Origin: an uncultured Candidatus Saccharibacteria bacterium
GTDB lineage: Bacteria; Patescibacteriota; Saccharimonadia; Saccharimonadales; Saccharimonadaceae
Length of the DNA stretch: 64,000 bases
NCBI GenBank assembly: GCA_963539815.1
Contig: CAUTMO010000003.1
Location: 131-64,130 of the forward strand
Direction: 5' to 3'
Shown: in pieces, positions 31,146-35,694 of the stretch
Layout: the number at the start of each line of letters is the position of its first letter
Position numbering within the stretch: the first letter of the stretch is position 1
The notes under the pieces: generated by a model
The model's database searches: none
Told to the model about the DNA's origin: nothing
What the model saw: the letters and a program-made list of their open reading frames with translations, nothing else
Position numbers and translations under genes: made by a program

Positions 31146-31178
31146 AGAATATCCTCCCCGCTAAGAGGAGGATATTCT
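31146..31178 (-). terminator. Strong 11-bp hairpin after ileS (probable terminator)
   Basis: GAATATCCTCC-9 nt-GGAGGATATTC. The T-run on the minus strand is imperfect (TATTGACTTTT). Confidence 0.55.
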
Positions 31179-31196: not shown

Positions 31197-34106
31197 TTAC
31201 GCTTTTTTCAGGGAAATTTCTACCAATTTACCCTCGATTTTGACGTCATATTTTTCCGATTCATCGACTGCAGAATTTAATTCCACAGCAAGGGTTTCAG
31301 CTTTAATGACGTCAGCAAAAGCATCAATAGCTTGAGATATTTCAGAATCGTCACTGGAGATACTCAGTACAATTCGATCATCTATCTGCAGACCAGCCTG
31401 CTTGCGTGCGCTTTGGACGTGGCGAACGATTTCGCGCATCAAACCTTCACGCTTTAATTCAGGAGTGATTGTTAAGTCATAAACAACACTCGGTTGCGCC
31501 GACTCAGACTCTGACTCTGTAACAATTTCAACCGATTTCACGTTCAATTCATCTTTAGCGATATCAATCAAGAACTGCGCAACTTCCGCTGGCGTATCCT
31601 GAGAAATAGTGTTGACAAGTTTCACAGACGCCAACGGCTGACGCACTTTAATTCCCTCTGATGCGCGCTTCGACAAGCCGTCATTCACCGCAGTACGCAG
31701 TGCATTCATGTCGCGTAGCATTGAATTATCTATTTCACCAGCCGGCAACCAATCTTTAAGATGAATCGACTCGTTATCGCCCGTCAAATTATGGTACAAT
31801 TCTTCCGCTAAGAATGGCGTAAACGGCGCTAGCATATAGCTGAGTCGCACCAAAACGTAATGGAGCGTGCGGTAAGCGTCATTTTTATCACCGTCATCTT
31901 CAGATTTCCAGAAGCGGCGACGACTGCGTCGAACATACCAGTTACTTGCGTCGTCTAAGAACGGCAAGATCGGCTTGGTTGCGTCCTGTAGATTATAGTT
32001 GTTAAGACCTCGCTCGACCTCTGTTATCAATTGATGCAACCTCGACACAATCCAAATATCCAACGGATTTGTTAAATCGTGAAGCGGATCTGACAAATCG
32101 CCGTTAAACTCCCAGCCGTCAACTTCAGCATACATCGTGAAGAAGTCGTACATGTTCCAGATCATACCAAGCTTACGCGCTACATCCATCACATCCTTAT
32201 CCGCCAAGGCAAAGTTTTCGCCATTTGTTAGTGGACTTGAAAGCATCAAGAATCGGAAGCTGTCGGCCGAAGTCTTATTCATCAATTCCATCGGATCGGT
32301 ATAATTCTTTAGCTTCTTGCTCATTTTTTTACCGTCGGCGGCATTGATAAATCCAGTACAAATCAAATTCTTCCATGGAGATTTACCAAACAAAGCCACG
32401 TTTACCGCCGTTAAACTATAAAACCAGCCACGAGTTTGATCAATCGCTTCAATGATAAAGTCAGCCGGAAAACTTGCTTCAAATTTTTCCTTGTTCTCAA
32501 ATGGATAATGGAACTGAGCAAACGGCATCGAACCAGATTCAAACCAGCAGTCCAAAACCTTACCAATATGATGCATTTCTGCGCCGTCGCATTCAAACGT
32601 AACGTCCATAACTTGTGGTAAATGATAATCGTCCAGCTTGCGACCTGTAACTTCTTCAAATTCCGCAAAGCTACCAATCACCTTCACCACTTCCGTGCCA
32701 TCATTTTTCACACCCTTCCATACTGGAATTGGTGTTGCCCAATAACGATCGCGGCTCAAATTCCAATCTGGCGCCTGCTCGATGATGTTATGGAATCGTC
32801 CAGTCCTCAGATTATCTGGCGTCCAACTTGTCTGCTCGTTCGCTTCCAACATTTCCTTTTTCTGGCTCTGAATATCCATAAACCAACTCGGATGAGCGCG
32901 GTACATCAATTTCGTGCCACATCGATGACAATGCGGATATTCGTGGCGAATATATTCAATTTTCAGCGCCCGACCTTCTTCCAGTAAAGTCTTCGCTATT
33001 TCCTTATTCACCTCCCAGATGTTGCGATCCAGCCATCTACCTTCTGTGTAATTTCCATCACCGTCAACCAACGACAATACTGGAACGTCATTTTTTCGGC
33101 ACAATTCATAGTCGTCCTCACCGTAAGCTGGCGCGATATGAACAATTCCCGTACCGTCCTCAGTTGTCACAAAATCGGCGTGAAGAATCTTATGCGCAGC
33201 CGGCCCACGATTTTCAAATAGCGGCTCGAATCTTTTGCCCACCAATTCAGAACCTTTAATCGTCTTAACAATTGAATATTCCAACGGCTGATGTTTTTCA
33301 TCCGTCATAACTTTCTCAACACGATCACTTGCAACGTAAAACTTTTTACCGCCATACGCCACCAAAGAATAATCGACATCCTGATTTACCGCCAAGACCA
33401 TATTTGCTGGTAAAGTCCACGGTGTTGTCGTCCACGCAAGCAAATATTCATCCTCATCCTCCAGCTTAAAGTAGACGAATAAGCTCGGGTCAGTGTCCAT
33501 TTGATAGCTATTTTCCATAGCCACTTCACTCTTAGAAATTGGCGTCGCATCCTTTGTGCAATAGACCAAAATCTTTTCGCCTTCGTAGATTTTGCCTTCT
33601 TCGTAAAGCCTCTTGAACGCCCACCAAACAGATTCCATGTAATTGTTATCCATGGTTTTATAAGCGCCCTTAAATTCAACCCAACGACCAATTCGCTCAA
33701 TCGTATCTTCCCACTCGGTACCAGTTCGAACCATAGCCGCTCGACATTCCTTGACATAATCCGAAACGCTAATTTTCGTGCCAATCTCTTTTTTATTAGA
33801 AATGCCTAGCGTTTTTTCGACGTAAACCTCTGCTGGCAGTCCGTGGCAGTCCCAACCCCAACGGCGCTCAACTCGCTGACCTTTCATCGTGTGGAAGCGC
33901 CCCATCGTATCCTTCACCGTACTGACCAATAAATGTCCGTGGTGCGGCGTTCCCGTCAAAAACGGAGGACCGTCATAAAAAACCCAATAATTATCAGCAG
34001 GACGCTGCGCGATCGACTTATTAAATGTGTCATCCTCTTTCCATCGCTGCACCCAATCTTTCTCATATTCCGCAGCTCGACGACGTGTTCCATGTTTGAA
34101 TTTCAT
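31197..34106 (-). CDS. ileS: Isoleucyl-tRNA synthetase, eukaryote-like type 2
   Basis: PFLTGTPHHGHLLVSTVKD (HIGH region of the type 2 kind), KMSKKLKNYTDP (KMSKS), DWNLSRDRYWATPIPVW. The protein is 969 aa. Confidence 0.93.
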   Translation of the reverse strand: MKFKHGTRRRAAEYEKDWVQRWKEDDTFNKSIAQRPADNYWVFYDGPPFLTGTPHHGHLLVSTVKDTMGRFHTMKGQRVERRWGWDCHGLPAEVYVEKTLGISNKKEIGTKISVSDYVKECRAAMVRTGTEWEDTIERIGRWVEFKGAYKTMDNNYMESVWWAFKRLYEEGKIYEGEKILVYCTKDATPISKSEVAMENSYQMDTDPSLFVYFKLEDEDEYLLAWTTTPWTLPANMVLAVNQDVDYSLVAYGGKKFYVASDRVEKVMTDEKHQPLEYSIVKTIKGSELVGKRFEPLFENRGPAAHKILHADFVTTEDGTGIVHIAPAYGEDDYELCRKNDVPVLSLVDGDGNYTEGRWLDRNIWEVNKEIAKTLLEEGRALKIEYIRHEYPHCHRCGTKLMYRAHPSWFMDIQSQKKEMLEANEQTSWTPDNLRTGRFHNIIEQAPDWNLSRDRYWATPIPVWKGVKNDGTEVVKVIGSFAEFEEVTGRKLDDYHLPQVMDVTFECDGAEMHHIGKVLDCWFESGSMPFAQFHYPFENKEKFEASFPADFIIEAIDQTRGWFYSLTAVNVALFGKSPWKNLICTGFINAADGKKMSKKLKNYTDPMELMNKTSADSFRFLMLSSPLTNGENFALADKDVMDVARKLGMIWNMYDFFTMYAEVDGWEFNGDLSDPLHDLTNPLDIWIVSRLHQLITEVERGLNNYNLQDATKPILPFLDDASNWYVRRSRRRFWKSEDDGDKNDAYRTLHYVLVRLSYMLAPFTPFLAEELYHNLTGDNESIHLKDWLPAGEIDNSMLRDMNALRTAVNDGLSKRASEGIKVRQPLASVKLVNTISQDTPAEVAQFLIDIAKDELNVKSVEIVTESESESAQPSVVYDLTITPELKREGLMREIVRHVQSARKQAGLQIDDRIVLSISSDDSEISQAIDAFADVIKAETLAVELNSAVDESEKYDVKIEGKLVEISLKKA

Positions 34107-34132: not shown

Positions 34133-34732
34133 TTACTTGTCTTCTAAGTCTTTTAATTTTTTACCATTAAATAACCAATAAGCTGCACCCTGGTACGCAC
34201 CACTGGCATTGCGCTTACCTTTTTTCTGGAAAATTTCACGGGTTAACGGCGACAATTTATAGACCTCGCCGTCATATTCAACCTCCCTCTCGCCAGCAAC
34301 AGTTGCACTAATGGATTTATCTTGCGCAAAGACAATCACGTCACCGTTTTTCAGCCCTTTTTGATAAAAACTAAATAGCGACCCCTGCTTTCGCAATCGC
34401 ACTACATCGTCAAATGCATGCTCCTTATTGATATTTTTTGGATAAACTACTTGACCGTCAAATGCCAGCAATAGCTGTTTAACGAGTTCACAATCTAGAG
34501 CAAACAGCTCACTATCATCGACTCGATGCTTACTAAAAATTTCATGTAGCAACGCCTCTTTATCATCATAATCGTTGAGTTCAATAGCAAAAAATTGCTT
34601 CAGCCCAGAAACATTATAATACCCATTCCGCTCAAGATGTCGCATTCTCTCGTTGTAGTTTTGTAATCCAGTTTTACCGATTTTAATCAGCCCAGAGACT
34701 GCGGTATTCATAATATAGACAATACCTTTCAT
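34133..34732 (-). CDS. GIY-YIG-like T5orf172/MUG113-domain protein (nuclease-like) with a DUF4357-like C-terminus
   Basis: KGIVYIMNTAVSGLIKIGKTGLQNYNERMRHLERNG...ALLHEIFSKHRVDDSELFALD fits the T5orf172/MUG113 pattern. SD AAAGGAG lies 5 nt upstream. Confidence 0.65.
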   Translation of the reverse strand: MKGIVYIMNTAVSGLIKIGKTGLQNYNERMRHLERNGYYNVSGLKQFFAIELNDYDDKEALLHEIFSKHRVDDSELFALDCELVKQLLLAFDGQVVYPKNINKEHAFDDVVRLRKQGSLFSFYQKGLKNGDVIVFAQDKSISATVAGEREVEYDGEVYKLSPLTREIFQKKGKRNASGAYQGAAYWLFNGKKLKDLEDK

Positions 34733-34749
34733 CGCACTCCTTTCATAAA

Positions 34750-34950
34750 TTAAAAATCACCTCTTTTGACTTCGAGAATCCGCTCAGGTGTTTTATGCGG
34801 ACGGTACCATCTCGATTCCAAAAGAAGTGATTCTTTCAGCTCTTTATTTGCTATTTACGCAAGCTCACGGCAGGTTCTAATCTCGACTTTATGCCGATTT
34901 CTTCCCGCAGACTTCACGGCTGATAACCGCTCATTTCACGCCAATTCAAC
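34750..34950 (-). promoter_or_regulatory. T-box riboswitch leader, probable Ile specificity
   Basis: Minus strand 34814..34773 reads CGAGA-[UGGUACC]-GUCCGC-13 nt loop-GCGGAU-UCUCG. That is the canonical two-helix antiterminator with a 7-nt bulge carrying the T-box core. A hairpin GCGG-[UUAUCAG]-CCGU at 34930..34916 displays AUC followed by A. ileS lies downstream. Confidence 0.72.
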
Positions 34951-35007
34951 ATACGCGAAAACGCCCTACTGTTATTGTAGCGCGTTTTCATCAAAATCCC
35001 AAGAACT

Positions 35008-35694
35008 TTATTTAATTTCCAGACCGCCTAAAATACACTCGCCCTTCAGATGTAGAGTCTTTTTGGCAGAATCTTTAGGTAGAGTTTTATCGTCAGTTCC
35101 GCCCAAAAATCCGCGCACTTCGTTCTCGATAATCACATCGTCTGGCAAAGTAATATTAACGCCACCGCAAAATGTAAAAATTTCAATTACAGAACCGTCT
35201 TTAATCTTTGCTTGACGCAAATCCAAATCAACACCACCAAATATCGCAACCAACGAACCGCCAGTATAATCACCTTTTACGGCGTCTTCTTCGCCCCAAA
35301 AACAAGCAATTTTCTCATTACCTGCGTTGTCTTTGTCCAGCTTTTTGGAGCGCTTAATACCCTTAGGGCTAGTATTAAACATCATGGACAAACCAGCAAC
35401 AATCAAAACCACAGGCCAGAACACCTTCCAGATACTAACGTCAACTATTCCGTAAGAATTGAGGCCAATCAGAACGCCAATCGCAACCAGCAATAATCCC
35501 CAAATCCACGACGTTTTATTTCGATAATTGAATATATTCACCAGCCCAGATAATACAAATCCCGCAGCCCAAACCGTACCCCAGAAAATGTCCCAGCTAA
35601 TGTTAATAACCTCGAGGTTCTTCAATAGTAAAACCCCGCCGAGCGCCACGACTACAATGCTCAAAAACGCTCTAATCAGAGAACTTTTCTTCAT
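35008..35694 (-). CDS. LiaF-like cell-envelope stress protein (TM region plus a DUF2154-like C-domain)
   Basis: Four or five N-terminal TM helices and a C-terminal beta-rich segment GGVDLDLRQAKIKDGSVIEIFTFCGGVNITLPDDV, typical of the LiaF/YvqF C-terminus. Confidence 0.5.
   Translation of the reverse strand: MKKSSLIRAFLSIVVVALGGVLLLKNLEVINISWDIFWGTVWAAGFVLSGLVNIFNYRNKTSWIWGLLLVAIGVLIGLNSYGIVDVSIWKVFWPVVLIVAGLSMMFNTSPKGIKRSKKLDKDNAGNEKIACFWGEEDAVKGDYTGGSLVAIFGGVDLDLRQAKIKDGSVIEIFTFCGGVNITLPDDVIIENEVRGFLGGTDDKTLPKDSAKKTLHLKGECILGGLEIK

Follow-up and report, generated by a model that had tools for sequence, protein, structure and literature searches.

Most T-boxes described so far come from Firmicutes and Actinobacteria, with a few other phyla also represented. 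Transcriptional T-boxes generally depend on a long Stem I platform, and their canonical terminator draws its 5′ strand from the 3′ sides of the antiterminator helices A1 and A2 (PMC7583486). The ileS T-boxes of Actinobacteria are mostly translational, with the anti-Shine–Dalgarno (anti-SD) sequence in the 3′ strand of the antisequestrator (PMC7583486), and the class II model was searched by TBDB in Actinobacteria only. Here we analyzed the leader upstream of the isoleucine–tRNA ligase gene (ileS) in a 64,000-nucleotide stretch of DNA, hereafter the window, from an uncultured Candidatus Saccharibacteria bacterium (assembly GCA_963539815.1, contig CAUTMO010000003.1, positions 131 to 64,130). A first reading, made from the sequence alone, had proposed an Ile-type T-box here with a compact, anticodon-loop-like specifier hairpin. 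The leader, which precedes a T5orf172 gene and ileS on the minus strand, is probably a tRNA-Ile-specific T-box that, through transcription attenuation, governs read-through into the T5orf172–ileS operon.

As with its closest known counterparts, the actinobacterial ileS T-boxes of short or ultrashort Stem I (class II in TBDB, including the Mycobacterium ileS T-boxes of solved structure), the leader combines an ileS target, an AUC specifier and a Stem I without a distal tRNA-elbow platform with reliance on a Stem II S-turn and IIA/B pseudoknot, and its discriminator has the same core of purine string, Stem III, AA, A1, UGGNACC bulge and A2. It differs from them in host phylum, Saccharibacteria belonging to the candidate phyla radiation (CPR), in its output, which is an intrinsic terminator, and in the competing strand, which belongs to Stem III (its 3′ side) and not to A1/A2. 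With canonical transcriptional T-boxes (RF00230; the Bacillus subtilis tyrS and glyQS type) it has in common the proposed tRNA-dependent attenuation, a putative kink-turn (K-turn)-like base, a specifier followed by a purine, the Stem II and IIA/B module of non-glycine T-boxes, a UGGNACC bulge of 7 nt that separates A1 from A2, and a terminator with a U-tract. The long Stem I, internal specifier loop, AG bulge and distal loop of that type are absent, however, and the antiterminator hairpin survives inside the terminator. Full-text literature searches returned no T-box report for Saccharibacteria, Patescibacteria or CPR, in agreement with the first reading, and nothing comparable among unusual terminator arrangements. 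The combination of an ultrashort Stem I, transcription attenuation and a nested terminator seems undescribed in Saccharibacteria. The likeness to the truncated Stem I of actinobacterial ileS T-boxes suggested by the first reading holds for a short Stem I without an elbow platform, while comparison with the ultrashort class draws on reviews. This class reportedly also presents its specifier in a terminal loop (Sherwood, Grundy and Henkin, 2015), and that account may already mention an ultrashort T-box that acts transcriptionally, or a terminator of the nested kind.

Relatives were collected by scanning species-representative genomes with the IleRS protein, which gave 80 loci (labeled L001–L080) with IleRS identities of 57–99%. 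Nearly all are titled Saccharibacteria or Saccharimonadales, and the closest are strains of Candidatus Nanosynbacter (oral TM7). A separate homologous-protein search with IleRS gave only ∼99% identical proteins; the leader comparison covers Saccharimonadia ileS loci. A UGGNACC bulge with complementary flanking arms was present upstream of ileS in nearly all 80 loci. Motif counts were taken from 61 non-redundant leaders (<90% identical to one another), alternative folds were compared energetically in 68 distinct leaders, and a covariance model of the discriminator was built from 47 non-redundant discriminator regions. The 5′ flank of Stem I was misaligned by MAFFT, as were the strands of IIB and of the terminator in some lineages, so that paired percentages for these helices are underestimates. 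The covariance model gave a single match per locus, always 5′ of ileS on the same strand, in 72 of the 80 loci, including one match in the window (34750–34848, 89.4 bits; the window sequence is itself in the model seed). Among the eight loci without a match, two (L005 and L064) have too little upstream sequence and four (L013, L027, L035 and L038) begin inside ileS. For the remaining two (L026 and L034), 3 kb upstream of ileS was searched without a match, which points to loss of the leader or to an insertion longer than 3 kb. No match was obtained in 716 kb of control Saccharibacteria-like DNA, a hint that few T-box targets, if any, exist besides ileS.

The specifier hairpin of the first reading, GCGG-[UUAUCAG]-CCGU at 34930–34916 with flanking UGA and GAA, is present on the minus strand. 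Its loop has the consensus Y-U-A-U-C-A-N: all 61 non-redundant leaders carry AUC and begin the loop with a pyrimidine, 55 have U at position 2 and 58 have A at position 6. Because the loop follows the tRNA anticodon-loop pattern Y32-U33-NNN-R37-N38, the description as anticodon-loop-like is apt; with IleRS encoded downstream and the codon invariant, one of the points that the first reading had named as a possible refutation, the proposed Ile specificity is supported. The 4-bp specifier stem is paired in 100% of cells and has changed on both sides at 4/4 pairs (for example, C-G in 20 sequences versus U-A in 19). Stem I terminates in the 7-nt loop directly above this stem, without a long distal tRNA-elbow platform, and so has the short or ultrashort form of class II. 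In the sequences inspected, UGA and GA(A) are kept on either side of the specifier stem, and the 3–5-bp basal helix varies in a complementary manner between lineages (read by eye as UCC/GGA, GAC/GUC, UGC/GCA, AGC/GCU and, in the window, GGC/GUC), an arrangement consistent with a K-turn as in other T-boxes.

Stem II and the IIA/B pseudoknot, the module expected of a non-glycine T-box, follow. The lower helix of Stem II is 94% paired, with compensatory changes at 5/5 pairs, and the S-turn strands are conserved in relatives as GAAGAA ... AGUAGA/UUAGA. Stem IIA is 93% paired and IIB 66% paired in the MAFFT alignment, where all 3 IIB pairs have changed doubly, as in UCGG/CCGA, CUGG/CCAG and ACAG/CUGU. 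For the structure of the decoding module as a whole, 90.3% of cells are paired, and 0/500 shuffles reached the observed values.

In the discriminator, the hairpin CGAGA / UGGUACC / GUCCGC / 13-nt loop / GCGGAU / UCUCG was confirmed at 34814–34773 of the minus strand, so that A1 and A2 are split by a 7-nt UGGN-ACC bulge. A1 is 98.9% and A2 96.2% paired, with many compensatory changes and 0/500 shuffles matching the observed values; the first reading had named covariation of these two helices as a check, and both covary strongly. Stem III is 97.5% paired across the 47 sequences, with 6/7 pairs doubly changed, and the A-A-G-x-G and G-A-A positions are invariant in the same set. The purine-string arrangement 5′-RRRxG–Stem III–AA-3′ of known T-boxes (PMC7583486) is present in the window as AAGAG–Stem III–AA. 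Taken together, Stem III, A1 and A2 have 97.6% of cells paired and 15/18 pairs changed on both sides (0/500 shuffles), and RNAalifold independently predicts Stem III (8 bp), A1 and A2. Among the 61 leaders the bulge reads UGGUACC in 55, UGGAACC in 4 (L018, L042, L067 and L072) and UGGCACC in 2 (L063 and L071), with ACC invariant. Judged by complementarity, the variant fourth base predicts either a tRNA-Ile discriminator of U or G, respectively, or a tolerated mismatch.

Neither the window nor any of the 80 ileS loci yielded a tRNA gene with ARAGORN, so tRNA-Ile was recovered indirectly. Metagenomes were scanned with a TM7 16S probe, and ARAGORN was then run on the resulting 120 loci (L081–L200). 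These contain 53 tRNA-Ile(GAU) genes; the discriminator is A in every one, and in 47 of them CCA is encoded. The GAU anticodon complements AUC, and A73-C-C-A complements UGGU, the bulge sequence in 55/61 leaders, a comparison made across loci rather than per genome; the pairing of UGGU with an ACCA end, as first proposed, is thereby borne out. In the rRNA-operon spacers of these loci, tRNA-Ile(GAU) and tRNA-Ala(UGC) occur in either order, sometimes with tRNA-Val(UAC) or tRNA-Cys(GCA), so that the arrangement of genes around the rRNA genes differs among these lineages.

The expression platform had been left ambiguous by the first reading, which offered a terminator or SD sequestration and two pairings, CACCU/AGGUG and UCACUUCUUUU/AAAAGAGGUGA. 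The second pairing (34830–34820 with 34767–34757, 11 bp) stands as the core of a conserved 14-bp terminator helix followed by UUUUU; SD sequestration was not upheld, and CACCU/AGGUG (34790–34786 with 34762–34758, 5 bp) is present in the window, with the loop–tail pairing confined to the Nanosynbacter clade. In the minimum free energy (MFE) structure of the window leader, UCAAAAGAGGUGAU pairs over 14 bp with AUCACUUCUUUUGG (34831–18), a segment made up of the Stem III loop and 3′ strand. Because the 5′ strand of the terminator is drawn from Stem III, the antiterminator hairpin is nested, intact, within the terminator. The MFE structure pairs the bases preceding the U-tract with those just 5′ of A1 in 60/61 leaders, by a helix of 10–14 bp, and a run of at least 4 U (4–7) directly follows the helix in 61/61. 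The nested helix is 85–96% paired with many double changes. Ten nested pairs with A1 and A2 gave 92.7% of cells paired, and 14 nested pairs with A1 and A2, in a model-based alignment that had been fitted to Stem III, gave 92.4%; 0/500 shuffles reached the observed values in either case. Mean energies over the 68 leaders were −21.1 kcal/mol for Stem III plus antiterminator with a free tail and −30.3 kcal/mol for the nested terminator (ΔΔG −9.2). A 5-codon upstream open reading frame (ORF), AGAGGUGA plus AUG, coupled to T5orf172 was considered and rejected, as relatives show this segment to be the terminator strand.

Two further observations concern variation in this region. In lineages with an enlarged A2 loop (window 34796–34784 versus 34762–34756; L010, L051 and L062), the loop complements the 3′ strand of the terminator and co-varies with it (CACCU/AGGUG, CACCUCC/GGGGUG in L010, CUUCUC/GAGAGG and CACUU/AAGUG), at a level that is significant mainly within one clade; the loop may thus act as a decoy or provide a further alternative partner. 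Divergent leaders without a recognizable Stem III keep the nested helix (L024 2897–2966, L060 2845–2912, L036 2904–2981 and L042 2904–2985), and a further divergent leader lies at 2901–2985 of L018.

The same A2-loop pairing raises the question of a canonical competition, in which the terminator would consist of CACCU in the A2 loop, AGGUG and the U-tract. Such pairing exists in the window, the loop and tail of Nanosynbacter-clade leaders are more complementary than in shuffles, with co-changes in L010 (CACCUCC/GGGGUG), and L018 has a terminator of this type (CGCCCC/GGGGCG). In most relatives, however, the A2 loop is 3–6 nt long and too short for the pairing; the 20 leaders with loops of ≥9 nt have a mean z of −0.84, with significant cases mostly close kin; and the 5 bp available in the window compare with 14 bp in the nested helix. 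When the Stem III region was blocked, the tail found a partner in only 7/68 leaders, with a negligible mean gain of 0.4 kcal/mol. Most leaders therefore lack a canonical terminator that would use the 3′ strands of A1/A2, the mutual exclusion of terminator and antiterminator 3′ strand that marks class I is not seen, and we regard canonical competition as an unlikely account of the platform.

Stem III thus appears, from comparison of the sequences, to be the switching helix: it has a strand in common with the nested helix, and each of the two covaries, as is characteristic of a switch. Structures of T-box–tRNA complexes show the purines on either side of Stem III docked against the helix that the tRNA 3′ end forms with the bulge, and tRNA binding cannot do without Stem III (PMC7583486). 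With charged tRNA-Ile, the tail would invade Stem III from a toehold in its loop; the weaker, AU-rich Stem III would be displaced, the nested terminator would form and RNA polymerase would stop at 34756–34752. As uncharged tRNA-Ile accumulates, its GAU anticodon would pair with AUC and its A73-CCA end with UGGU. By analogy with the solved discriminators, the purine strings would then latch onto the tRNA–bulge helix and clamp Stem III, which would withhold the 5′ strand of the terminator and let transcription proceed into T5orf172 and ileS.

Since the tRNA-binding hairpin is compatible with the long helix and the bulge is not in obligatory mutual exclusion with it, the nested hairpin could instead be a constitutive structural, processing or stability element, such as an RNase III target or a leaky terminator, with tRNA control weak, lost or exerted by another route. 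The lack of conservation of the A2 G•U sensor and the lineages without Stem III (both discussed below) would fit such an element. Yet down to 57% IleRS identity the AUC codon, the UGGNACC bulge, the purine strings, the S-turn and the pseudoknot are invariant or covary, which indicates selection on tRNA recognition, and the covariation of two helices that share a strand is the mark of a switch. A constitutive role accordingly seems to us distinctly improbable.

An SD-like motif lies ≤20 nt from the ileS start in 39/42 uninterrupted loci, with a median of 27 nt from the start of the U-tract to the gene start. Because it lies 3′ of the U-tract, the SD is not sequestered by the conserved helix, and the SD sequestration that marks class II, by an anti-SD in the 3′ strand of the antisequestrator, is not seen. 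With a U-run following the helix and the SD further downstream, the output is read as transcription attenuation. A translational T-box as in Actinobacteria, in which AAAAGAGGUGA would be an SD sequestered by UCACUUCUUUU unless tRNA is bound, has in its favor an SD-like GAGGUGA in the window 3′ strand with an AUG 10 nt later, and the mostly translational nature of known short-Stem-I T-boxes (PMC7583486), but is very improbable, as that AUG opens only a 5-codon frame, the true starts have their own SD 3′ of the U-tract (AAAGGAG at 34743–37 in the window; AAGGAG-type in the 39/42 uninterrupted relatives), the 3′ strand is not SD-like in many relatives (e.g. CUAAAUAGGGAU and CCUUUGAGG), and the helix always directly precedes a run of 4–7 U.

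Several points weigh against attenuation by a tRNA-Ile-specific T-box. At the gathering threshold, Rfam gave no match in the window. A permissive scan of 451 nt placed RF00230 at 34897..34774 with 23.2 bits, against a curated threshold of 93 (E 0.0033), so that the significant cmsearch match called for by the first reading was not obtained; none of 16 diverse relatives reached the threshold either. The partial match covers model positions 106–216 of 219, that is, Stem II through the antiterminator, and the shortfall in score corresponds to the missing long Stem I; by Rfam's own standard the window leader is not a member of RF00230. The pair closing A2 (34802/34778 in the window; alignment columns 50/80) is G•U in the window, but this pair, to which the chief steric sensing of the aminoacyl group is ascribed (PMC7583486), is kept in only 25 of 47 sequences, the others including UA in 12, AU in 5 and GC in 4. 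The bulge stays intact in the nested fold, and transmission of the signal to Stem III is inferred from the structures of other T-boxes. Four leaders (L024, L060, L036 and L042) have no recognizable Stem III hairpin, and in two (L018 and L024) antiterminator sequence can contribute to a terminator of the canonical type; the platform is therefore not uniform, and evidently it has been rewired more than once within the leader family. A simple terminator scan did not report the window site and was not enriched over shuffles in this genome region; it misses the site because its loop limit excludes nested hairpins. Finally, the Saccharibacteria identity of the loci with tRNA-Ile genes depends on the assumed specificity of the TM7 16S probe.

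A T-box across Saccharimonadia would extend the range of these elements to ultra-small, host-dependent CPR bacteria, whose reduced genomes would still sense tRNA charging in the regulation of an essential synthetase. We put forward only tentatively the broader proposal of a new T-box lineage, the first in CPR, in which an anticodon-loop mimic replaces Stem I, control is co-transcriptional, the antiterminator is kept in both states, Stem III does the switching and, in oral Nanosynbacter strains, a defense-gene hotspot depends on read-through. Such leaders would contradict the rule that transcriptional T-boxes need a long Stem I for fast tRNA capture, and would offer a natural system in which Stem III, not the antiterminator, competes with the terminator and in which the purine-latch role of Stem III is directly testable. 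The anticodon-loop-like specifier would be a minimal module for recognition of a tRNA anticodon, of relevance to engineering and to T-box origins. Because the Rfam model misses the whole family, the leader is probably unannotated in hundreds of genomes, a gap that a dedicated covariance model, as built here, would fix. The coordinates of all features are collected in Table 1.

Table 1. Features of the T-box leader, its operon and the cargo slot; coordinates refer to the window unless a locus label precedes them.
Feature	Coordinates	Strand	Details
LiaF-like gene	35008-35694	-	Flanks the intergenic region on the upstream side
Promoter-like site	34974..35002	-	TTGGGA 35002-34997, 17-nt spacer, TACAAT 34979-34974; consensus scan
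T-box leader	~34965..34752	-	5′ of T5orf172 gene and ileS
Stem I	34910..34965	-	Basal helix GGC 34965-63 / GUC 34912-10
Lineage-specific hairpin	34959-34935	-	Inserted in Stem I 5′ strand
K-turn-like GA motif	34933-31, 34915-13	-	UGA opposite GAA
Specifier hairpin	34930-27, 34926-20, 34919-16	-	GCGG / loop UUAUCAG / CCGU
Specifier codon	34922..34924	-	AUC (Ile), then conserved A 34921
Stem II	34870..34908	-	Lower helix GCGGG 34908-04 / CCUGC 34874-70
S-turn strands	34903-34899, 34882-75	-	AAGAA and GAUUAGAA; variable apical hairpin 34897-34883
Stem IIA hairpin	34869-34858	-	CGU GAGCUU GCG
IIB pseudoknot	34864-62, 34852-50	-	Loop GCU with linker AGC
Discriminator 5′ part	34816..34844	-	Purine string AAGAG 34844-40
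Stem III	34839-33, 34832-25, 34824-18	-	CUGAAAG / loop AAUCACUU / CUUUUGG
Linker AA	34817-16	-	Between Stem III and A1
Antiterminator element	34772..34815	-	A1: UCGAGA 34815-10 / UCUCGA 34777-72
T-box bulge	34809-03	-	UGGUACC
A2	34802-34797, 34783-78	-	GUCCGC / GCGGAU; 13-nt loop 34796-34784
Terminator 3′ strand and U-tract	34752..34769	-	UCAAAAGAGGUGAU 34769-56, UUUUU 34756-52
SD and start of first regulated gene	34730..34743	-	AAAGGAG 34743-37, ATG 34732-30
T5orf172 / GIY-YIG-like cargo gene	34133..34732	-	199 aa; Pfam PF10544 E 1e-7; PADLOC PDC-S57
ileS, isoleucine--tRNA ligase	31197..34106	-	969 aa, regulated target; TIGR00392 816 bits, cut-off 621
Cargo, L002	495-3001		Type II methyltransferase + restriction enzyme
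Cargo, L009	1300-3001		PDC-S11 + T5orf172
Cargo, L010	2339-3001		PD-T7-4
Cargo, L011	2306-3004		PD-T7-4

The slot between the T-box terminator and ileS usually measures 60–110 nt, and in about a third of the loci it holds cargo genes of the same orientation. Among near-identical oral Nanosynbacter strains this cargo consists of anti-phage defense genes or candidates and varies from strain to strain (Table 1); in the near-identical strains L003, L012 and L014 the slot is empty. The 199-residue cargo protein of the window matched the PADLOC candidate defense family PDC-S57 with 185 bits and a PHROG "homing endonuclease" family with E 2.5e-9, and its ORF is separated from ileS by 26 nt. Cargo genes begin 15–35 nt past the U-tract with their own SD, and many end overlapping the ileS start. 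As this distance leaves no room for a promoter of their own, they must be transcribed by read-through of the T-box terminator, and the defense genes, as judged from their placement, appear to be expressed via a terminator controlled by tRNA charging. Their position suggests a link between sensing of translational stress and phage defense; alternatively, the slot may be a safe, highly expressed landing site.

Upstream of the leader, the promoter-like site predicts a leader start at ∼34968–34965. The match taken alone is not above chance; TATAGT/TACAAT boxes were also read 10–20 nt upstream of the leader in relatives. The 246-nt leader has a folding energy z of −2.87 versus shuffles. A plus-strand ORF at 34766–35215 was judged spurious because the minus strand shows RNA-type covariation. 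The IleRS protein carries the Pfam domains tRNA-synt_1, Anticodon_1 and DUF5915. Directly 3′ of the ileS stop codon, a perfect 14-bp hairpin, AGAAUAUCCUCCUC...GGGGAGGAUAUUCU, lies at 31146–31178 on the minus strand and is probably the operon terminator, though its U-tract is weak.

In several environmental Saccharimonadia, the slot contains a gene for a GDSL-like lipase/acylhydrolase (L017 2387–3004, L032 2384–3004, L055 2399–3004, L080 2423–3004 and L044 1903–2496), whose stop codon often overlaps the ileS start. It is a recurrent operon partner under predicted T-box control. Other slot cargo includes GNAT genes, found often in environmental lineages, as well as NUDIX, CAP and cupin genes.

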